Assembly (NCBI GenBank): GCA_964520885.1 | Contig: CAZFQD010000001.1 | Span: forward strand, 1 to 52,571 | Direction of reading: 5' to 3' | DNA length: 52,571 nt | DNA from: an uncultured Oscillospiraceae bacterium | GTDB lineage: Bacteria; Bacillota; Clostridia; Oscillospirales; SIG519 | In this document: positions 6,173-36,006 of the stretch, one piece after another | Numbering within the stretch: position 1 is the first letter of the stretch | How the letters are laid out: every line of letters begins with the position of its first letter | Made by a program: the position numbers and the translations under genes | The notes under the pieces: model-generated | The model's input: only the letters and a program-made list of their open reading frames with translations | Databases searched by the model: none | Told to the model about the DNA's origin: nothing

Positions 6173-7948
6173 ATGAAAAAATTTATCTCTTTATTAGTAT
6201 CACTTTTAGTCTTTGGTTCAACATTAATGTTACCATCCTTTGCAACCTCTAAAAGCACAGTTATTTCATTGGTTCCCACAAATACAACTGTTAGAATAGG
6301 CGATACTATTACAATTACAGGTAAATTTAATGGAAATGCAATGGTGGGAACATTTAATGTTTATGTAAAATACAATGTCACACAATTACAATATAAAAGT
6401 GTTGAGGGTATCTCACCTTCAATAAAAGCCGGCGAACTTGATGCTGTTAGTAGTAGTGGTAGCATACAACTTTTATACCTTGATGCTGATGGTGGCGAAA
6501 CGGGTATACTATCTGCAAATGCTTTTAAGTTAACTTTTAAAGTGGTTGGCGGAAATGTTGGAGATACTATTTCTGTAAATACACAAGTTGATACAGTAGG
6601 CGATGTAAACGTAACTGAAGTGGAAACATCGGTAGTTGCTGCTACAATGAAAATAGCCGCACCACTTTCAACAAATAATTATCTAAGTAGTTTAAGCATA
6701 GATAACGGCACTCTTTCACCTTACTTTAAAAAAAGTGTAACTACTTATAATGTTTCTGTGCCGTTTACTGTTTCAAAGTTAAATGTAAATGCAAAAGCCG
6801 AGGACACTAATTCAAAAGTTTCTATAAATAACCCAACTCTTACACCTAATTCAACCACAAATATTACTGTGTTAGTTACTGCTCAAAATGGTGCTAAAAA
6901 AACTTATACAATTAAGGTGGCAAGAGCCAAAGACCCTAATTATCAGCAAAGTAGCAATAATTATCTTTCAAGTATAACAGTTAATCTTAGTATGCTTTCT
7001 CCAATTTTTAATAAAGATGTAACAAGTTATGTAGTTTGGTTGCCATATGAAACGGATAATATTGTGGTTGCAGGCACTGCCGAAAACAACAAAAGCACAG
7101 TAAGTGTTATCGGTGGTAGCAACTTAGAAGCGGGTAAAGATAATACTATTACACTTGTTTGCACAGCAGAAAATGGGGATGTTAAAACATACACCATAAT
7201 TGCTAAAAGAGCGTCAGAAGATTTTAGCCAAACTCCAACGCCAACGGGAACTCCAACCTCTTTAGATATTGAAAAGATTAAAAATGAAATCTCAGTTGCA
7301 CAAAAATCTCAAGTTAGCAAGACAGTAAATGTTGATTTAAGTAATAGCGGTTCAAAACTACTTGACAATTTATTTTTTAACCAACTTTCAAGTAGTAAAG
7401 ATGTAATAGTAAATATAAATTTAGGTGGAGCAAAAATAGTATTTGAGGGCAAAGAAACAACAGTTCTATCAGAGCAAAAAACCTATGATTTTTCATATGT
7501 TAATAATAGCCAATATAAAGATATAATGATAAAAGATGTAGGTAGTGAAAACGATATATTTACATATTCATTTGCTTATCACGGAGACTTGCAAGGATTT
7601 GCAACATTTAATATTTACACTAATTTTGTTTCTGGCGATAAGGTTAATGTTTATAAGTATGATGCAGAAAAACCACAATATATTTTAATTGCCCAAAACA
7701 TAACTGTTGGCACAGGTGGTGTGGTTACATACATTAATAACTCTTGCTCAGATTATTTAATTACAAAAAATACAATTGCAAATGCTTTAAAATCCGATGT
7801 TATTGCAAAACAGGTTTTGCAAAACACAAGTGATGATTTTTTATTAAATATAGTAATATTTGCTGTAATATGTGTATTAATTTTAGCATTAGGTATTTTT
7901 ATTGGATATAATATTAAAGTCAATAGAACACAAAACAATATAATTTAA
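6173..7948 (+). CDS. Membrane-anchored cohesin-domain protein with two cadherin-like beta-sandwich repeats
   Basis: Start moved to ATG 6173 (GGGAG RBS 6160-6164; signal peptide MKKFISLLVSLLVFGSTLMLPSFA). aa ~35-170 show a cohesin-like pattern (RIGDTITITGKFNGNAMVGTFNVYVKYN..LQYKSV; FKLTFKVVGGNVGDTISV). Two NNYLSS(L/I)..G.LSP.F...VT.Y.V.(V/L)P ... KTYTI units follow. There is a TP-rich linker and one C-terminal TM helix (IVIFAVICVLILALGIFIGY). Confidence 0.65.
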   Translation: MKKFISLLVSLLVFGSTLMLPSFATSKSTVISLVPTNTTVRIGDTITITGKFNGNAMVGTFNVYVKYNVTQLQYKSVEGISPSIKAGELDAVSSSGSIQLLYLDADGGETGILSANAFKLTFKVVGGNVGDTISVNTQVDTVGDVNVTEVETSVVAATMKIAAPLSTNNYLSSLSIDNGTLSPYFKKSVTTYNVSVPFTVSKLNVNAKAEDTNSKVSINNPTLTPNSTTNITVLVTAQNGAKKTYTIKVARAKDPNYQQSSNNYLSSITVNLSMLSPIFNKDVTSYVVWLPYETDNIVVAGTAENNKSTVSVIGGSNLEAGKDNTITLVCTAENGDVKTYTIIAKRASEDFSQTPTPTGTPTSLDIEKIKNEISVAQKSQVSKTVNVDLSNSGSKLLDNLFFNQLSSSKDVIVNINLGGAKIVFEGKETTVLSEQKTYDFSYVNNSQYKDIMIKDVGSENDIFTYSFAYHGDLQGFATFNIYTNFVSGDKVNVYKYDAEKPQYILIAQNITVGTGGVVTYINNSCSDYLITKNTIANALKSDVIAKQVLQNTSDDFLLNIVIFAVICVLILALGIFIGYNIKVNRTQNNII

Positions 7949-8005
7949 TTGTTTTTATATTTTACCTTAGTTTTTCATATTCCCTCATTATTAAAAATAT
8001 ATTTT

Positions 8006-8191
8006 AAAAAAATTGAGCAAAGAGAATTATCAAAGGAAATAGATTATTCAAAAATCTAAGGGCTTAGAATTGAGGCAGGGCAAAAACTAAACAAAAAAAA
8101 GCCTTTAAATTTAGGTCAAGCCTCGCGAATTTCGGGAGTAAGCCCGACGGATATTTCGGTTTTGCTAATATATTTAGAGCAGAATAAATAA
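8006..8191 (+). pseudogene. mnmG: Displaced remnant of the mnmG 3' end (direct repeat copy 2)
   Basis: Collinear with 1739-1924 (167/186 nt identical). In-frame TAA at 8057-8059. No upstream gene body. Confidence 0.85.
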
Positions 8192-28757: not shown

Positions 28758-29039
28758 TTGTTTATGATTTCACAAAGTGCAGTTTTAATGGCTTTCTCTT
28801 GGCTATTATCATGCTTAGAAGTATTAATTCTTGCAAGAGTAATTTTATCACTTATTTTTACTTTTACGCATAAAGAATGGAAAATAACAGCTATCGTTAT
28901 TGCAATAACGGAGCCATTTTTAGCACCAGTAAGAAAACTTTTAAATAAATTTGAAGCAATAAAGAAATTGCCAATAGATTTATCTATTTTGGTTGTTTGG
29001 TTATTAATTGATTTTATTAGAAGTATAGTAATAGGATAA
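28758..29039 (+). CDS. yggT: YggT/YlmG-family membrane protein
   Basis: ~90-aa two-TM protein in the conserved position after sepF. The start is either TTG 28758 or ATG 28764. Confidence 0.75.
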   Translation: MFMISQSAVLMAFSWLLSCLEVLILARVILSLIFTFTHKEWKITAIVIAITEPFLAPVRKLLNKFEAIKKLPIDLSILVVWLLIDFIRSIVIG

Positions 29040-29150
29040 GTATAAAAAATTAGTAATTATGAATTAGGAATAAAAGTATGGCTTTGTCACTTGATATTAA
29101 TTTAAGTCAACTTTGGCACACATTAATTATACAATGCAAAAAAAAATAAA

Positions 29151-29930
29151 ATGGGAGTGAGTTTTGTGTTTAATCCTCAAGATATTGAAGAAAAAACCTT
29201 TGAAAAGGCGTTTATTGGTGGTTATAAAGCAGAAGATGTAGATGATTTTCTTGATGGGCTTGCAGTAGATTACAAGAGAATGTTTGTTGAAAATGCTGAG
29301 ATTAAGAAAAAGATTGTAATTTTAGCCGAAAAAATTGAGGAATATAGAAAAAGTGAAGAAACTATTAAAACAGCAATCATATTTTCTCAAAAGTTAAAGG
29401 AAGATTCCACAAAGGAAGCCCAGAATATTTCTGAGAAAATTTTAGCAGACACAAAAGCCGAAGCAGATGAAATAATTAAAGAGGCTCAAGATAAATCAAA
29501 GGAAATATATGATGATGCAGATAGATTTGTTGAGGTTACAAAGAAAACAAATGCCGATTTAATTCAAAGGGAAAACGATGCTTTAAATGCAATTAAAAAA
29601 GAAGTATCGGATTTTAAAACACAACTTCAAACTATTTACAAATCTCATTTAAAGGTTATTATGTCCTTGCCAAATTATGAGGAACCTATAAAATCAAAAG
29701 AGAATGTTCAAATTGAAAAAGAAATTGAGCAAGTTATAGAAAAAAAAGAAGAAATATTAGAAATAGTTGAAAAAGTTGAAATAATTGAAAAAGTTGAAAA
29801 CAGTGATGATGTTTCTAATGAGAAAATAAATATTGCACTTAATATTAAAGAGGAGCCAGACGAGGACGAGGAGCCAATCGTTTTATCAAAGCCAATTAGT
29901 ATTGATTTTGAAATTACACCTAAGGAATAA
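29151..29930 (+). CDS. divIVA: Cell division/septum-site protein DivIVA
   Basis: N-terminal FNPQDIEEKTFEKAFIGGYKAEDVDDFLD lipid-binding motif, a coiled coil and an acidic tail. The real start may be GTG 29166, which follows GGGAGTG. Confidence 0.85.
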   Translation: MGVSFVFNPQDIEEKTFEKAFIGGYKAEDVDDFLDGLAVDYKRMFVENAEIKKKIVILAEKIEEYRKSEETIKTAIIFSQKLKEDSTKEAQNISEKILADTKAEADEIIKEAQDKSKEIYDDADRFVEVTKKTNADLIQRENDALNAIKKEVSDFKTQLQTIYKSHLKVIMSLPNYEEPIKSKENVQIEKEIEQVIEKKEEILEIVEKVEIIEKVENSDDVSNEKINIALNIKEEPDEDEEPIVLSKPISIDFEITPKE

Positions 29931-29963
29931 TTTTTTATATTACAAAAGGGGAGTATTAATATA

Positions 29964-32753
29964 ATGCCACAGGATTACAATCAAACTTTAAACCTGCCAA
30001 AAACGGATTTTCCAATGAGGGCAGGTTTGCCACAAAGAGAGCCGGAATTATTAAATAAATGGTCGCAAGAAAAATTATATGAAAATATTTTAAAGCAAAA
30101 CAATGAAAAGCCACTTTACATTTTGCATGATGGACCGCCTTATGCTAATGGCGACATTCATATAGGACACGCATTAAATAAAGTTTTAAAGGACATTGTT
30201 GTTAGATATAAAAATATGTCAGGTTTTAAGGCTCCTTATGTTCCCGGCTGGGATACTCATGGCTTGCCTATTGAACTTCAAGCTATAAAAAGCTTAGGAA
30301 TAAATAGAGCAAATACTGATGTATTGGAGTTTAGAAAGCATTGCAAGGATTTTGCATTAAAATATGTAGCAAATCAAAAAGAACAATTTAAAAGGCTCGG
30401 TGTAATTGGCGATTGGGATAATCCCTATTTAACTTTACAACCTGAATTTGAAACAAAGCAAATAGAAATTTTCGGTGAAATGGCTAAAAAAGGGTATATT
30501 TATAAGGGCTTAAAGCCTGTTTATTGGTGCCCCCACGATGAAACTGCTCTTGCAGAAGCAGAAATAGAATATGCTGAAGATACAAATAATTCTGTATTTG
30601 TAAAGTTTAAAGTAACAGATGATAAAGGCAAATTGACTGCTTTAACTAATGAAAAGTGCGACAATATGTATTTTGTTATTTGGACTACTACAATATGGAC
30701 TTTGCCGGGCAATGTTGCTATTTGTGTTGGACCTAAATATAAATACTCTCTTGTTAAATGTAATAATGAAATTTTAATATTAGCAAACGAATTAATAAAA
30801 AGTGTAATGAAAGCCACAAACATTGATGATTATAAGGTTTTAGCCGAAATAAACGGAAAAGACCTTGAATTAATGAGTACACAACATCCTTTTTTAGACA
30901 AGCAATCACTTGTTATAGTTGGTGACCATGTAACTTTAGAAGCTGGAACAGGTTGTGTTCACACAGCACCGGGACACGGTGTGGATGACTTTATTGTTTG
31001 CCAAAATTATAAACAACTAAAAATAGTAGTCCCCGTTGATAATAAAGGGGTTATGATTGCTGATGCCGGAAAGTTTGCTGGGCTTTATTATAAAAAAGCA
31101 AACAAGGCAATTTTTGAAGATTTGCAGGAAACAAATGCACTTTTAGCAACAGAAACAATAATTCACCAATACCCTCATTGTTGGAGATGTAAAAGCCCGA
31201 TTTTGTTTAGAGCGACGGAACAATGGTTTTGTTCAGTAGAAGATTTTAAAGAGCAAGCTATAAAGGCTTGTCATAGTGCCAAATGGGTTCCTGCTTGGGG
31301 CGAGGATAGAATTGTAAGTATGATTAAGGATAGAAATGATTGGTGCATTTCAAGGCAAAGAGTTTGGGGCGTTCCAATTCCTGTTTTCTATTGCAAAAAA
31401 TGCGGAAAATATATTATTAATGATGAAACTATTAATGCCGTATCAGAAAAATTTAGATTAGAAGGCTCTGATGCTTGGTATAAATATAGTGCAAAAGAAC
31501 TTTTGCCAAATGGTATTTCTTGTGAATGTGGGCATACTGAATTTAGAAAAGAAACTGATATTATGGATGTTTGGTTTGATAGTGGCTCCTCTCATAAAGC
31601 AGTGCTTGAAACAAGAGAGGGTTTAACAAGCCCTGCTGATATGTATTTAGAAGGGAATGACCAATATAGAGGTTGGTTTCAGTCCTCTTTGTTGACTTCG
31701 GTAGCAACAAGCGGAATTGCTCCTTATAAAACAGTTTTAACTCATGGCTTTGTAGTGGATAAAGAAGGTAAAAAAATGTCCAAATCACAAGGCAATGTTA
31801 TTAGTCCACTTGATATAATAAAAGAATATGGGGCAGATATTTTAAGGCTTTGGGTGGCAAGTTCTGATTATACTGTGGATGTGAGGATTTCAAATGATAT
31901 TTTAAAGCAGTTATCTGAGGTTTACAGAAAAATAAGAAACACCGCAAGATTTATTTTAGGAAATATTAATGATTTTAATCCAGATAATGATATGGTGGAA
32001 TATTCAAAAATGCCAGAACTTGATAAATGGGCATTAATCAAACTTAATGCCTTAATTGAAAAGGTTAACAAAGCATATAACGAGTATGAATACCACACTG
32101 TTTATCACTCTATTCACAATTTTTGCGTTGTTGATATGTCGAATTTTTATCTTGATATAATAAAGGATAGGTTATATTGCGAAAACGCCTCTTCGGTTGA
32201 TAGAAGAACTGCTCAAACGGTAATGTATATTATACTTGATGCGTTGGTTAAAATACTCTCGCCCGTGCTTTGCTTTTCTGCTGAGGAAATTTGGCAGTTT
32301 ATGCCTCATACAAGTGATGTAAAAAAACAAAGTATTTCCTTTAACCAAATCCCAAAGATTAATACTCTATATGTAGATAATATAATTTCAGAGCAATTTG
32401 ATAAACTCTTAGAAATAAGAGAGGATGTTAAAAAAGTTCTTGAAATAGCAAGAACAGCAAAAACAATTGGCTCTTCGCTTGAAGCGAAATTGGTTATTTA
32501 TTGCAATCAAGAAAAATACGATTTTCTAAACGGAATTGAAGACTTTTTAACAACCGCCTTTATTACCTCACAAGTGCAACTTGTAAAGGGAGAAAACAAG
32601 GACGCATTTATAGGCGAGTATAGTGGAATTGCTGTTGAAGTTAAAAAAGCCGACGGCTTAAAATGTGAACGATGCTGGGTATTTAGCACAACGGTAGGGC
32701 AAAGCGAAAAGCACCCGACGCTTTGTGAAAGATGTACAAAAGTAGTCGGTTAG
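29964..32753 (+). CDS. ileS: Isoleucine--tRNA ligase
   Basis: HIGH motif (PYANGDIHIGHALNK), KMSKS motif (GKKMSKSQGN) and a C-terminal zinc-finger CERCW...CERC. Confidence 0.95.
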   Translation: MPQDYNQTLNLPKTDFPMRAGLPQREPELLNKWSQEKLYENILKQNNEKPLYILHDGPPYANGDIHIGHALNKVLKDIVVRYKNMSGFKAPYVPGWDTHGLPIELQAIKSLGINRANTDVLEFRKHCKDFALKYVANQKEQFKRLGVIGDWDNPYLTLQPEFETKQIEIFGEMAKKGYIYKGLKPVYWCPHDETALAEAEIEYAEDTNNSVFVKFKVTDDKGKLTALTNEKCDNMYFVIWTTTIWTLPGNVAICVGPKYKYSLVKCNNEILILANELIKSVMKATNIDDYKVLAEINGKDLELMSTQHPFLDKQSLVIVGDHVTLEAGTGCVHTAPGHGVDDFIVCQNYKQLKIVVPVDNKGVMIADAGKFAGLYYKKANKAIFEDLQETNALLATETIIHQYPHCWRCKSPILFRATEQWFCSVEDFKEQAIKACHSAKWVPAWGEDRIVSMIKDRNDWCISRQRVWGVPIPVFYCKKCGKYIINDETINAVSEKFRLEGSDAWYKYSAKELLPNGISCECGHTEFRKETDIMDVWFDSGSSHKAVLETREGLTSPADMYLEGNDQYRGWFQSSLLTSVATSGIAPYKTVLTHGFVVDKEGKKMSKSQGNVISPLDIIKEYGADILRLWVASSDYTVDVRISNDILKQLSEVYRKIRNTARFILGNINDFNPDNDMVEYSKMPELDKWALIKLNALIEKVNKAYNEYEYHTVYHSIHNFCVVDMSNFYLDIIKDRLYCENASSVDRRTAQTVMYIILDALVKILSPVLCFSAEEIWQFMPHTSDVKKQSISFNQIPKINTLYVDNIISEQFDKLLEIREDVKKVLEIARTAKTIGSSLEAKLVIYCNQEKYDFLNGIEDFLTTAFITSQVQLVKGENKDAFIGEYSGIAVEVKKADGLKCERCWVFSTTVGQSEKHPTLCERCTKVVG

Positions 32754-32802
32754 GAGTTAGTAATGAAATGATAAATGACAATTGTTTAAAGGAGATGAAG
32801 AA

Positions 32803-33069
32803 ATGCCTGAACTTTGCAGATTTGAAGGTATGATAATTAAACTTATTTTTGGCGATAATGTTCAACATAACAAGCCACATATACATGTTTATTTTGCAGA
32901 ATTTGAAGCTTCAGTTGGAATAGATGGTGAACTATTATCAGGTTCATTACCGGTAAAAAAACTAACAATTTTACAGGCTTGGATGATATTACACGAAGAT
33001 GAACTTTATAAAGCTTGGAATAAAGCAGTAAGAAACGAGCCTTTTGGTAAAATTGAGCCTTTAAGATAG
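32803..33069 (+). CDS. DUF4160 family protein
   Basis: Start at ATG 32803 after an AAGGAG RBS. MPELCRFEGMIIKLIFGDNVQHNKPHIHVYF is the family-typical N-terminus. Confidence 0.75.
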   Translation: MPELCRFEGMIIKLIFGDNVQHNKPHIHVYFAEFEASVGIDGELLSGSLPVKKLTILQAWMILHEDELYKAWNKAVRNEPFGKIEPLR

Positions 33070-33081
33070 GAGGTATTCAAC

Positions 33082-33381
33082 ATGTATATTATTGACGGTA
33101 TTGCTTATGCAGGTGAGCCAAAGCCCCCCATAATTGTTAAGGCGGCTCGCTCACTTGACGACTATAAATTATGGATTCGTTTTGCAAATAATGAGGAAAA
33201 AATATTTAATTTTACACCTCTTTTAAATTATCCCTGTTATACTCCTTTAAAAGATAAATCCGTGTTTGATAAAGTGTATATAGATTTTGGTTGTCCAGTT
33301 TGGAACAATGGAGAAATTGATATTGCTCCGGAATTACTTTATAAAGATGGAATGCCAACAGGAGAAAATACCAATTCTTAA
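33082..33381 (+). CDS. DUF2442 family protein
   Basis: 99 aa. LWIRFANNEEKIFNF..LL and W.NGEIDIAPELLY are typical of DUF2442. A GGAGG RBS is present and the gene lies 12 nt after the DUF4160 gene. Confidence 0.75.
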   Translation: MYIIDGIAYAGEPKPPIIVKAARSLDDYKLWIRFANNEEKIFNFTPLLNYPCYTPLKDKSVFDKVYIDFGCPVWNNGEIDIAPELLYKDGMPTGENTNS

Positions 33382-33398
33382 TTGGCACATAATTCTTC

Positions 33399-33472
33399 AG
33401 CATAACAGTAGGGCAAAGCGAAAAGCACCCGACGCTTTGTGAAAGATGTGCAAAAGTAGTTGGTTAGGAGTT
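33399..33472 (+). pseudogene. ileS: Displaced copy of the ileS 3' end (partner 32685-32758)
   Basis: 74 nt with 4 mismatches and no indels. Includes the TAG stop and the first heptamer unit. Confidence 0.85.
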
Positions 33473-33505
33473 GGGAATTAGGATTTAGGAATTAAGAATA
33501 AAATT
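33464..33505 (+). repeat. Heptamer array (TTAGGAG/TTGGGAA/TTAGGAT/TTAGGAA/TTAAGAA)
   Basis: Six consecutive 7-nt units read directly from the sequence. Confidence 0.55.
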
Positions 33506-33536
33506 AGATTTTATAAGTTACAAAAATTATAACAAT

Positions 33537-33573
33537 AAAAATCTCACTTTCAATTTTGAAGGTGAGATTTTTA
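33537..33573. terminator. Bidirectional terminator between the ileS region and the convergent beta-propeller gene
   Basis: 10-bp stem AAAATCTCAC/GTGAGATTTT with A/T runs on both sides. Confidence 0.6.
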
Positions 33574-33605
33574 ATTATTTGATTAGTAAAGTTAAAGTTT
33601 TAAAA

Positions 33606-35762
33606 TTATTTTAAATTCAAACGATAAGTTTCCTTTAATGAATTGTAATCATAAGTAATTAAAACTCCACGAATAGAAAGATAAACATTATTATTAATAT
33701 ACAACACTCTTGAATTATTATAATAAGAGTTTTCATTTAAATTGTCAGGCAATAATCTGCCTTTTTCAACAAGTTTATTATCTTTTACCGATACCATAAT
33801 AGCACCCTCACGATAAATCCCCCCATTGTTGTAATCAATGTTACCATCAGTTCCATTAATATATGCCGGGAAAAGTGCAGTGGTTTTATTATTCCACCAA
33901 ACAAAAGCTCTTGGATTATATTGTGCTTCGGACGATGAACCAACTCCACCAAAAACTAAATTATCAAGTTCTTTTGGTTTTTTAGGGTCTGAAACATCAA
34001 ATAATGATGCCTTTAAGCCACCAACTCTATTTCCAACTACTGTTTCTTTGCCATCTTTATCCTTTGAATATATTTCTACAGTATCAACACCAATACCCAT
34101 TAAGAGATTAGCACTAACAGGATGAAGATAATTAGAAAATCCGGGAATTTTTAGTTCGCCTAATACCTTTGGTGCATTAGGATTTGATAAATCAATAACA
34201 AATAATGGGTCCATATTTTTAAATGTTACAATATACGCTGTTTTGCCCATAAATCGAACTGATTTAATGGTTTCACCGACAGCCAAGCCTTCAATTTTTC
34301 CAGCCAATTGCAAATTGCTATTTAATACATACAAATTATTAGTTGCCCCATTTTGTCCCCACTTTGTAGTGGCAATTCTAAAAGTGCTACCAAATTCATC
34401 CATACTATATTGATTTAATATTTGTCCGGGAACCTCGCCTGCTACAATAAATTTTACAGAAGTTTCGGTAATATCAAATTTCATAATTACTGTTCCTTCT
34501 TCGGCAGGTGCAATTATTTCAGATTTAATTGATGGATTTATCTCTTTAATTCCATCAACCGCAGTTACTGTTCCATCTGCTGATGTAACAGTAGTTTGAG
34601 ATGATAATTTTTGTTGTCTGTAATAAGGTGAAACAATATACAAAGAACTATTACTCATATATAAATTACTGCCTGCACCTAAGATTGTTTCAACTGAAAC
34701 GGGGTTATTATTATTTATATCAAATATAGAAATTAATAGAAAGTTTTGAGAAATATTTTCAGGACAATATTGAATACTTTCTGCTTTTATTACAATGTTA
34801 TCTTTTCCCTTAACACTATCAGAATAAAAGGGTAAAATCTGTTGAGGTTGCACTTGCGAAATTGGATAATGTTGTATATATTTATTAGTTACAATATAAA
34901 ATTTGCCATCCTTTTCACGAGTGGATAAAATACTACCATCAAAGGTTAATTCCCGATTAAGAACTGGCTTTTCTTTATTTGAAACATCGTAAACTTTAAC
35001 CATTGTAGTTTGATAACCCATATAACGCATATCGGCAGTTTTGCCCATTGAAGGAGAATCAATAGCAGGTTCAATCTGAGCGAAAGTGTCAGGCTCACCT
35101 TCAATTTGAGTTGATTTTGAACCAATAATAGTAAGTAAATTGCCCTTTAAATAAATTTCACTAATATATTCATTAGTGGCTAAAACTATACTGCCAATAT
35201 TTTTAGGCTGTGGATTAGCCGCAACAATAAAAACCTTGTTGCCACTAACAATATAAATAAACTCACCATCATTTTTGATAATATCTCCCTCGTCAACACC
35301 GCTAACCTGAGTGTTAGTGGAAGAATAGTCTGCACTGTCAGATGTTGTTTGTGCTTCAGGTGCACCTGCAACTGATTTTGCATTATCTGTTGTGACCGAT
35401 TGAGATTGAGCATAATCGTATGTTGTGGTATTGCCTTCATATAAAACACCCATACTTTTTAGCAAACTAACCATCTCAGCATAAGTTTTAAATTTTGGTA
35501 GTTTAACTTCTTGATTAATTTTAATAATTGCAGGACTACTTTTTAAAGTTTCTCCCGAAATTAAAGGAACTTTATCAGCAGTATTACTTGAATTTTCCGA
35601 ATTGCTTTCTGATTGCGTTATTGAACCGCTTGAATTTGAGTTTTGAATTGAAGTATTTGCCTTTTTAAACCATCCAAAAACATTCGCCAAAATTAAAATT
35701 CCAAAAACAATAGTCATAGCCGTTGAAGATGCTAAAATAATTAATAATCTTTTTTTATTCAT
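33606..35762 (-). CDS. Secreted beta-propeller domain protein (Beta_propel family)
   Basis: Start at ATG 35762 (GGAGG RBS; MNKKRLLIILASS signal anchor). Family-typical TNTQVSGVDEGDIIKNDGEFIYIV, and a C-terminal propeller with DPLFVIDLSNP. Confidence 0.8.
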   Translation of the reverse strand: MNKKRLLIILASSTAMTIVFGILILANVFGWFKKANTSIQNSNSSGSITQSESNSENSSNTADKVPLISGETLKSSPAIIKINQEVKLPKFKTYAEMVSLLKSMGVLYEGNTTTYDYAQSQSVTTDNAKSVAGAPEAQTTSDSADYSSTNTQVSGVDEGDIIKNDGEFIYIVSGNKVFIVAANPQPKNIGSIVLATNEYISEIYLKGNLLTIIGSKSTQIEGEPDTFAQIEPAIDSPSMGKTADMRYMGYQTTMVKVYDVSNKEKPVLNRELTFDGSILSTREKDGKFYIVTNKYIQHYPISQVQPQQILPFYSDSVKGKDNIVIKAESIQYCPENISQNFLLISIFDINNNNPVSVETILGAGSNLYMSNSSLYIVSPYYRQQKLSSQTTVTSADGTVTAVDGIKEINPSIKSEIIAPAEEGTVIMKFDITETSVKFIVAGEVPGQILNQYSMDEFGSTFRIATTKWGQNGATNNLYVLNSNLQLAGKIEGLAVGETIKSVRFMGKTAYIVTFKNMDPLFVIDLSNPNAPKVLGELKIPGFSNYLHPVSANLLMGIGVDTVEIYSKDKDGKETVVGNRVGGLKASLFDVSDPKKPKELDNLVFGGVGSSSEAQYNPRAFVWWNNKTTALFPAYINGTDGNIDYNNGGIYREGAIMVSVKDNKLVEKGRLLPDNLNENSYYNNSRVLYINNNVYLSIRGVLITYDYNSLKETYRLNLK

Positions 35763-36006
35763 AATAAATTCCTCCAATTTATTTAGTTTTTGCTCTTTAA
35801 TTTAATCTACAACTATTTAGACTATAAAAATAGTAAAAAGTTCCCGTTTATTAAAAAGTATTTCATATTAAGATTATATCATATTAATTTTAATGTGCAA
35901 CACAAAATGGCACTCTCGTTTTTTGTTGACTAAGGTATATTTTTGTGATAATATTAAACAAATTAAAAAGATTTTCAATTGTTTTTCGGAAGGAATTGAG
36001 TTTTAA

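Follow-up and report, generated by a model that had tools for sequence, protein, structure and literature searches.

A pair of small genes of the DUF4160 and DUF2442 families, predicted to form a toxin–antitoxin (TA) module of the DhiTA type, was found directly behind ileS, the gene of isoleucine–tRNA ligase, in a contig of 52,571 nucleotides from an uncultured Oscillospiraceae bacterium (assembly GCA_964520885.1, contig CAZFQD010000001.1; hereafter the window). The two genes lay between the functional end of ileS and a relic copy of the same gene end. We assumed, with a probability of roughly 0.5, that the unit had entered as an ileS end joined to dhiTA, which came from a related donor by homology-dependent recombination and displaced the native end. 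What moves would probably be the cassette together with one copy of the gene terminus, acting as a homology arm, rather than the 0.64 kb between the repeats. An earlier note on this stretch had described a discrete mobile cassette of 0.64 kb; the small inserted cassette was confirmed, while the extent of the mobile unit probably has to be revised to the cassette plus one terminus copy.

The target gene ileS (929 aa; NCBIfam TIGR00392, 1028 bits) occupied positions 29964–32753 of the plus strand, and its stop codon TAG was located at 32751–32753. The functional terminus (codons FSTTVGQSEKHPTLCERCTKVVG and stop) together with 11 nt past the stop formed the first copy of a direct repeat (32682–32764), as revealed by self-comparison and BLAST. 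A leader of 49 nt carrying the Shine–Dalgarno sequence AAGGAG (32754–32802) connected the ileS stop with the ATG of the DhiT-like toxin gene (DUF4160, 88 aa; 32803–33069). The DhiA-like antitoxin gene (DUF2442, 99 aa; 33082–33381; Pfam PF10387, 35.3 bits, E 1.3e-8) was preceded by a GGAGG of its own and started 12 nt past the toxin stop, so that the order was toxin-first. After a trailer of 14 nt (33382–33395), which ended in CACATAATTC, the second repeat copy followed (33396–33478). This relic terminus (FSITVGQSEKHPTLCERCAKVVG and stop, the latter at 33465–33467) had kept its frame and its stop codon and had no gene body upstream. All of these features were on the plus strand. The relic was continuous with an array of four heptamers (33467–33494; GGAGTTG GGAATTA GGATTTA GGAATTA), within which the repeat homology stopped (33472–33478). 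The DNA between the repeats measured 631–640 nt and held the DUF4160 and DUF2442 genes and no other open reading frame (ORF); the 631-nt insert was made up of the remaining 38 nt of the leader, the 88-aa ORF, a 12-nt spacer, the 99-aa ORF and the 14-nt trailer.

A repeat search of the window aligned the two copies over 83 nt with 92% identity, and BLAST delimited a 74-nt core (32685–32758 against 33399–33472) with 4 mismatches (94.6%), two of them synonymous and two non-synonymous (T>I, T>A). The duplication of 74 nt with 4 mismatches, 2 of them synonymous, that the earlier note had reported was thus reproduced. Its positions and family names for the two ORFs, their own Shine–Dalgarno sequences and the end of the homology inside the heptamer array were likewise correct. 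The core did contain the duplicated ileS end, but its division into 67 nt of gene and 7 nt of flank had to be corrected: the last 69 nt of ileS, stop included, fall in the core, followed by 5 nt of flank. Over the full 83 nt, seven positions differed, namely three synonymous ones (TTT/TTC, ACG/ACA, GTC/GTT), the two amino acid replacements and two positions past the stop. The central 42 nt were identical in both copies and occurred exactly twice in the window, compared with 0 expected from 100 shuffles, and across the whole genome (2.32 Mb, 255 contigs) the copy number of the repeat was two. The 11 nt past the stop of copy 1 resembled one and a half heptamer units (GGAGTTAGTAAT compared with GGAGTTGGGAAT).

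The toxin candidate covered the DUF4160 profile PF13711 completely (1–65; 61.1 bits against a cut-off of 23, E 1.2e-16). Furthermore, the NCBIfam model toxin_DhiT (NF048015) matched it end to end with 75.8 bits (E 3e-21); since this score lies under the equivalog cut-off of 100, we regarded the toxin of the ileS locus as a family relative of DhiT and not as its orthologue. DhiTA of Dickeya dadantii 3937 was validated in 2021 as a type II TA pair with DUF4160 and DUF2442 domains: DhiT causes growth arrest in E. coli and D. dadantii and is neutralised by the antitoxin, and the complex of both represses the promoter (PMC8198452). The view of the earlier note that the function of these families was unproven therefore no longer applies to their TA behaviour, while it remains valid for the mechanism. 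Its statement that the two families occur as a pair was supported, as the DUF2442 gene stood directly 3′ of the DUF4160 gene in 79 of 80 surveyed loci. The ileS-locus pair shares with DhiTA the domain pair, the toxin-first order and the small, closely spaced genes. It differs in that it is set between duplicated ileS ends and that no counterpart of the autoregulated promoter of dhiTA was detected at the ileS locus. We place the pair in the DhiTA family of type II TA modules and infer that its DUF4160 protein is toxic. A study of 2025 also counts DUF4160 among the effector domains found in Menshen antiphage systems, with no structural homologue (PMC12065111). An AlphaFold model of the ileS-locus toxin (predicted local distance difference test score, pLDDT, 92.4) consisted of five strands followed by two helices. 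No fold neighbour was found in the PDB (best Foldseek E 0.59), nor any sequence match among PDB structures, and PADLOC returned no match. An invariant cluster H22-x-K24-P25-H26-x-H28 stood out in the toxin alignment, and residues 22–28 are a candidate active or metal site.

Comparison with related genomes pointed to an insertion. The pair was missing behind ileS in four relatives, with ileS products 85% (L024), 73% (L025) and 58% (two family-level genomes) identical at the amino acid level. In L024, the nearest ileS relative, a heptamer array and a core resembling repetitive extragenic palindromic (REP) elements followed directly past the ileS stop; this contig ends 50 nt past the stop, and its DNA is too diverged to align with the ileS locus. 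As relic copy 2 passes without a break into the heptamer array, in the same way as ileS does in L024, we considered it to be the native end. L025 carried behind ileS a hairpin as well as an unrelated membrane ORF of 85 aa, and the two family-level genomes displayed the classical ileS-lspA-rluD order. This genome has a single DUF4160 copy; across the order the domain is patchy, with 13 of the 61 genomes encoding it. Toxin homologues with 70–86% identity were numerous across Oscillospirales and other Clostridia, while ileS falls to 65% outside the genus. None of the closest homologues (82–86% at the amino acid level) adjoined ileS; they were located next to a prophage integrase (L159–L161), in a prophage region with ANT and HTH genes (L156), in a ParE islet (L154) or after a glycan-binding gene (L155), and the DNA similarity among these cassettes did not extend beyond the two ORFs with their ribosome-binding sites. 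The insert's GC content (0.326) gave no compositional sign of foreign origin when compared with that of the genome (0.315). Taken together, the sequence comparisons support the conclusion that the pair was acquired horizontally and inserted behind ileS. An exact-pattern scan of metagenome contigs yielded no closer relatives and a protein-guided scan nothing closer than 59%; the proteins of ileS, the toxin gene and the beta-propeller gene, used as queries, retrieved only near-identical copies of this strain. The outgroups L024 and L025 were too diverged to be informative for polarising the differences between the repeats.

A survey of related cassettes in other species revealed where the flanking repeats come from. 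From more than 527 candidate stretches encoding a relative, 80 DUF4160 loci were taken from one-genome-per-species contigs and examined for direct repeats, 25 nt or longer, that bracket the pair with each copy no more than 350 nt away from it. Such repeats were present at 9 of the 68 loci with enough flank, compared with 25 of 2339 control positions (1.07%; binomial p = 5e-8), so that duplicated target sequence around DUF4160/DUF2442 pairs is about 12 times commoner than at control positions; 5000 per-locus resamplings of the controls never gave more than 4 hits. The repeats corresponded to local target sequence: the last codons and stop of queA (31/31 at L097, 25/26 at L106), the end of another ORF (86 nt, 97.7%, at L098) or whole terminator hairpins (L070, 33/33; L107, L101 and L104). 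One of the nine hits, L053, was due to paralogous coding sequence and not to a target duplication.

A single cassette lineage was placed between queA and tgt in five species (L076, L089, L094, L097 and L106), with the gene identities confirmed by Pfam. Between species, the toxin gene was 88–96% identical, the antitoxin gene 88–94% and even the non-coding trailer 81–98%; the leader was 88–93% identical among four loci, with the leaders of L097 and L106 diverging. For the last 300 nt of queA the corresponding range was 65–82%, and the downstream flank was either 76–83% identical or unrelated. Because the cassette is more alike than the queA gene that flanks it, it must have moved between these species. 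At L073, L076, L089 and L094, the functional queA end, with the pattern GDAM[FL]IS and stop, together with the following TTTTGCACAAAAT…, was conserved along with the cassette. The native queA ends of the species (FIH and stop, FIQ and stop, or FIGVV…) were situated immediately past the trailer, and the junction always occurred at the same base, before GGCGAYGCGATGTT. Judged from these alignments, the cassette at queA demonstrably brings along a gene end that takes the place of the native one and displaces it. L073 (3726–4690) contained the same cassette away from queA, with a queA-like fragment (SFGDAMFIS and stop) at its left end and no second copy of the core. Here, the cassette adjoined the genes of a HicB antitoxin and an HTH_38 protein, and it may represent an arm-bearing cassette in transit or within a TA islet.

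The ileS locus was not the only place in its genome where an insert was bracketed by a duplicated gene end. A genome-wide self-comparison for direct repeats, from which five pairs belonging to dispersed families (C15, C47, C80, C44 and C2) and tandem XRE paralogues (C96, C102 and C176) had been removed, disclosed at least nine inserts between genome-unique direct repeats of 63–236 nt with 82–97% identity. Besides the DhiTA pair at ileS (83-nt repeat, spacing 714 nt), these were a cohesin/dockerin pair at mnmG (185 nt, 6.3 kb), a leucine-rich repeat-dockerin gene at ypeB (69 nt, 2.3 kb), a TA pair of HEPN and nucleotidyltransferase genes at fmt (63 nt, 803 nt) and a GGDEF-HD gene with small ORFs at an EF-G-like gene and its convergent neighbour (236 nt, 3.4 kb). 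Further cases were an insert at spoIIR (85 nt, 1.7 kb), an 87-aa ORF at a membrane protein gene on C43 (219 nt, 1.0 kb), an 82-aa ORF on C31 (84 nt, 719 nt) and a KilA-N gene on C87 (68 nt, 1.9 kb). For a tenth pair on C13, a third, diverged copy existed elsewhere in the genome. Neither the 52-kb ileS contig nor the contigs of the other repeat-flanked inserts encoded an integrase or resolvase; the genome gave 11 tyrosine and 2 serine recombinase hits, all on other contigs. The repeat pairs of the genome had no junction motif or terminal inverted repeats in common, none consisted of identical copies, and mismatches showed no consistent clustering at the repeat edges as a sign of gene conversion.

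Three of these inserts deserve a closer description. At fmt (C93, 2107–2972), the HEPN (135 aa) and nucleotidyltransferase (107 aa) genes were enclosed by 63-nt repeats with 95% identity, a layout like that at ileS with another TA family. At mnmG, the last 185 nt of the gene were duplicated around a 6.1-kb cohesin/dockerin module (positions 1736–1920 and 8003–8187 of the window). On C43 (14803–15051), the relic terminus of the membrane protein gene was part of an 82-aa open frame with a start of its own and could be expressed as a mini-protein.

The duplicated coding termini allowed two modes of origin to be compared. Copying in situ predicts a ratio of non-synonymous to synonymous differences per site (pN/pS) of about 0.5–0.6, with the functional copy constrained and the relic free; a donor-borne end predicts mostly synonymous, allelic differences. 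In eight duplicated coding termini of this genome, functional and relic copies differed by 44 synonymous and 39 non-synonymous changes (pS 0.248, pN 0.056, ratio 0.23), which departs from the site proportions with p = 5e-11 and from the in-situ expectation without mutation bias with p = 5e-5. The mnmG termini alone gave 15 synonymous and 4 non-synonymous differences with a pS of 0.38, a value that we read as species-level divergence; mnmG is the single locus that speaks most strongly for an imported gene end. The relics of mnmG and C43 contained an in-frame stop each, and some decay of relics must therefore have occurred. Overall, the pooled comparison supports the notion that the duplicated termini are diverged alleles.

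These observations could be combined into the following scheme. The cassette would arrive joined to the last ~70 nt of ileS and ~11 nt of flank, and the borrowed gene end would provide a homology arm for host homologous recombination. The donor would belong to a related, heptamer-bearing lineage in which the cassette already lay behind the resident ileS, just inside the array; such a lineage was suggested by the likeness of the 11 post-stop nucleotides of copy 1 to heptamer units. Integration could proceed by a single, Campbell-type crossover with a circularised ileS end plus cassette, or from a linear fragment by one homologous crossover and one illegitimate join. Either route would result in an intact ileS with a wholly or partly imported terminus, followed by the cassette and then by the displaced native terminus (33396–33467) on the native array and terminator. 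The cassette would probably be read through from ileS, with transcription ending at the ileS terminator, and both addiction and the repeat mismatches would slow its loss by recombination between the repeats. The anatomy of the locus, the family of its genes, their absence behind ileS in relatives, the recurrence of the layout, the allele-like divergence of the duplicated termini in this genome and the cassette-borne queA end of other species are observed; we infer the donor, the circular or linear intermediate and the dependence on host recombination, and for the ileS locus the arm-bearing model draws largely on analogy.

Several points weigh against this scheme. It requires a first placement of the cassette behind ileS in some ancestor, which the model leaves unexplained. 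An ileS fragment beside the cassette was seen in 0 of 88 related cassette loci, and no donor with an ileS end joined to dhiTA was found. Nor was an empty site found in a close strain, same-species contigs all being 99.98–100% identical. The common core at queA measures only 14–31 nt, a length on the low side for recombination by RecA and one that would suit a site-specific recombinase as well. The ileS locus taken alone, with 3 synonymous and 2 non-synonymous differences, is underpowered and gave no significant bias (p = 0.08). Finally, a transition bias that raises the effective synonymous share to 25–30% would shift the pooled result to p = 0.003 to 0.057, marginal at its strongest.

The best-surviving alternative is an insertion in situ with long target duplication (ILTD), in which a naked cassette would have entered at a staggered break or by template switching during replication, so that 74–83 nt were copied to both sides and the downstream copy decayed. 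ILTD has been described for restriction–modification (R-M) units (Nobusato et al. 2000, Gene 259:99; Furuta, Abe & Kobayashi 2010, PMC2853133), with repeats of 46–423 bp that are often imperfect and often overlap a gene 3′ end, no mobility gene and a mechanism that is unknown (PMC2853133). The features by which Furuta et al. 2010 recognised such events recur at ileS, where the insert is below 20 kb, the repeat is longer than 30 bp and genome-unique, and mobility genes are lacking; their repeats were likewise often imperfect, with 93–98% identity (PMC2853133). The presence of at least nine such structures with unrelated cargo and repeats of 63–236 nt in one genome, the decay of the mnmG and C43 relics by in-frame stops, and the perfect duplicated segments in other species (31/31 at L097, 33/33 at L070) also accord with ILTD. 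However, the pooled synonymous bias (pN/pS 0.23; 15:4 at mnmG) exceeds that expected from one constrained and one freely decaying copy, and 0 of 9 repeat pairs in the genome are identical. Moreover, the functional terminus at queA is demonstrably borne by the cassette and unlike the native one, and the mechanism of such duplications is without experimental demonstration. We therefore considered ILTD a possible but rather unlikely origin of the ileS repeat.

Less probable still is a site-specific recombination event, in which the repeats would correspond to attL and attR of an integrative element (a prophage, IME or ICE) that targets the ileS 3′ end and brings a replacement terminus, and the pair would be either a decayed, CIME-like remnant of it without a recombinase or a mini-cassette moved in trans by an integrase encoded elsewhere. 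Such an origin would suit the finding that in prophages (L159–L161) close homologues of the pair lie at the end nearest the integrase, the recombinase hits elsewhere in the genome (11 tyrosine, 2 serine) and the queA junction, which is identical in all species and lies before a 14-nt core reminiscent of an att core. Yet the insert comprises only two ORFs, a 38-nt leader and a 14-nt trailer, and a remnant of this kind would have to result from two deletions, each stopping precisely at an att border. No recombinase is encoded on the 52-kb contig, and at least nine inserts with unrelated repeats would demand many integrase specificities. A duplicated terminus within 0.3–3 kb downstream was present in 0 of 34 other ileS loci, a limited sample, and the repeat itself is long (74–83 nt) with mismatches spread over its length instead of an identical core with divergent arms. 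An assembly artefact or strain chimera, for which the fragmented and repeat-rich nature of this metagenome-assembled genome might speak, was dismissed because the structure recurs with 99.98–100% identity in three public assemblies (two from ENA, one from JGI) that were made independently, with other samples and other pipelines, the more so as the repeat copies differ at 7 positions and identity declines gradually at the left edge, unlike at a k-mer join.

The import of a gene end together with its cassette has parallels in known systems. Like the R-M units that undergo ILTD, the ileS cassette is a small addictive unit without mobility genes between long, site-specific target repeats; unlike them, it carries TA cargo, and the two copies look like diverged functional alleles. 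In Rhs and contact-dependent growth inhibition (CDI) systems, an incoming module bears a stretch homologous to a resident gene's end and recombines there, and the former end persists downstream as a fossil that lacks a promoter and starts with the shared homology. Such C-terminal displacement and the resulting orphan modules were reportedly described by Poole and colleagues in 2011 and by Koskiniemi and colleagues in 2014, among others. The ileS locus has in common with it a module with gene-end homology and an old end left downstream, but what is displaced is a housekeeping gene's invariant end and no variable toxin tip, and its cargo is a separate two-gene operon that brings no new C-terminal domain. 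The arrangement also recalls the integration of elements at gene ends. Protein-gene 3′ ends are targeted by cis-mobilizable elements (CIMEs) and other integrative elements, as exemplified by ICESt1 and ICESt3 at fda. Gene 3′ end, direct repeats, replacement gene end and lack of a recombinase of its own are features that the ileS insert shares with CIMEs. In contrast to CIMEs, the ileS site yielded no related element with an integrase, and a single genome holds many repeat pairs that are unrelated to one another; to our knowledge, every CIME described is far larger than the ileS insert.

Both the TA family and the insertion signature were known before. New here are a further member of that family, an ILTD-type signature with TA cargo and evidence that the repeats arose in another way. 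In the literature searched, no description of ILTD for TA pairs was found, and a review by Mruk & Kobayashi extends the addiction analogy to TA systems while mentioning ILTD for R-M units only (PMC3874152). The mobility of chromosomal TA modules outside plasmids, phages and transposons is poorly understood, and the ileS locus offers a clean minimal example, with nothing but two ORFs placed within an essential gene's operon; the replicated cases in the same genome and the cassette family turn an oddity into a testable model. As a tentative generalisation, somewhat more doubtful than the scheme for ileS itself, small addictive cassettes (DhiTA, HEPN/nucleotidyltransferase (HEPN/MNT) and other cargo) might constitute a recombinase-free mobile class whose sole targeting device is a borrowed 3′ gene end. 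Host recombination would insert them at the same gene in related genomes, regenerating the gene and leaving a fossil, and recombination between the repeats would release the circle again. If true, one mechanism would link ILTD of R-M systems, Rhs/CDI C-terminal displacement and TA mobility and would explain how chromosomal TA modules can spread where neither transposases nor integrases take part. A relic gene end that has diverged like an allele would then serve as a simple sequence signature by which transfers can be dated and traced in metagenomes.

Regarding transcription, a consensus scan, which is weak evidence, found no sigma-70-like site in the 49-nt leader, and no terminator proper to the cassette was detected. 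The sole terminator-like site of the plus strand was a palindrome with a 17-bp stem followed by a T-run (33536–33573, assigned to neither strand), located ahead of a convergent beta-propeller gene on the minus strand (33606–35777; Pfam PF09826, E 7.9e-142) that forms the downstream boundary of the locus. The palindrome is probably a terminator common to ileS-dhiTA and the convergent gene, and the promoter and terminator scans suggest that the pair is co-transcribed with ileS. The wider palindrome region (33525–33584), with 29-nt arms and the T-run, belonged to a dispersed family with copies on C239, C12 (two), C32 and C244. An integron gene cassette was also considered and ruled out: folding of the repeat gave no hairpin or attC-like structure better than those of shuffled sequences (z –0.2 to –1.1), Rfam had no match within 29000–34500, and the repeat is target sequence and not cassette sequence.

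Heptamer arrays were a recurrent feature of this genome. A simple pattern search returned 44 tandem arrays of at least 3 units (GGAATTA, GAGGTTA and AAAGTTG types), mostly just past gene ends, and in three cases on this contig a relic gene end abutted such an array. In the congener L024, the array after the ileS stop was composed of AATTCAC units, and the adjoining REP-like core (6963–7012; GTCATTGCGAGCGAAGCATGGCAATCT) was also found next to heptamer arrays of the present genome (e.g., C12 near 26388, C11 near 2960). The composite of heptamers and REP-like core is thus a repeat family common to both species, inside which the L024 contig breaks off. The widespread ileS-lspA-rluD linkage was missing in the present genome, where the cassette and the convergent beta-propeller gene took its place (32754–35777). 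In another metagenome-assembled genome of the Clostridia (L054, 4001–7715), a DhiTA pair was located upstream of ileS instead of behind it.

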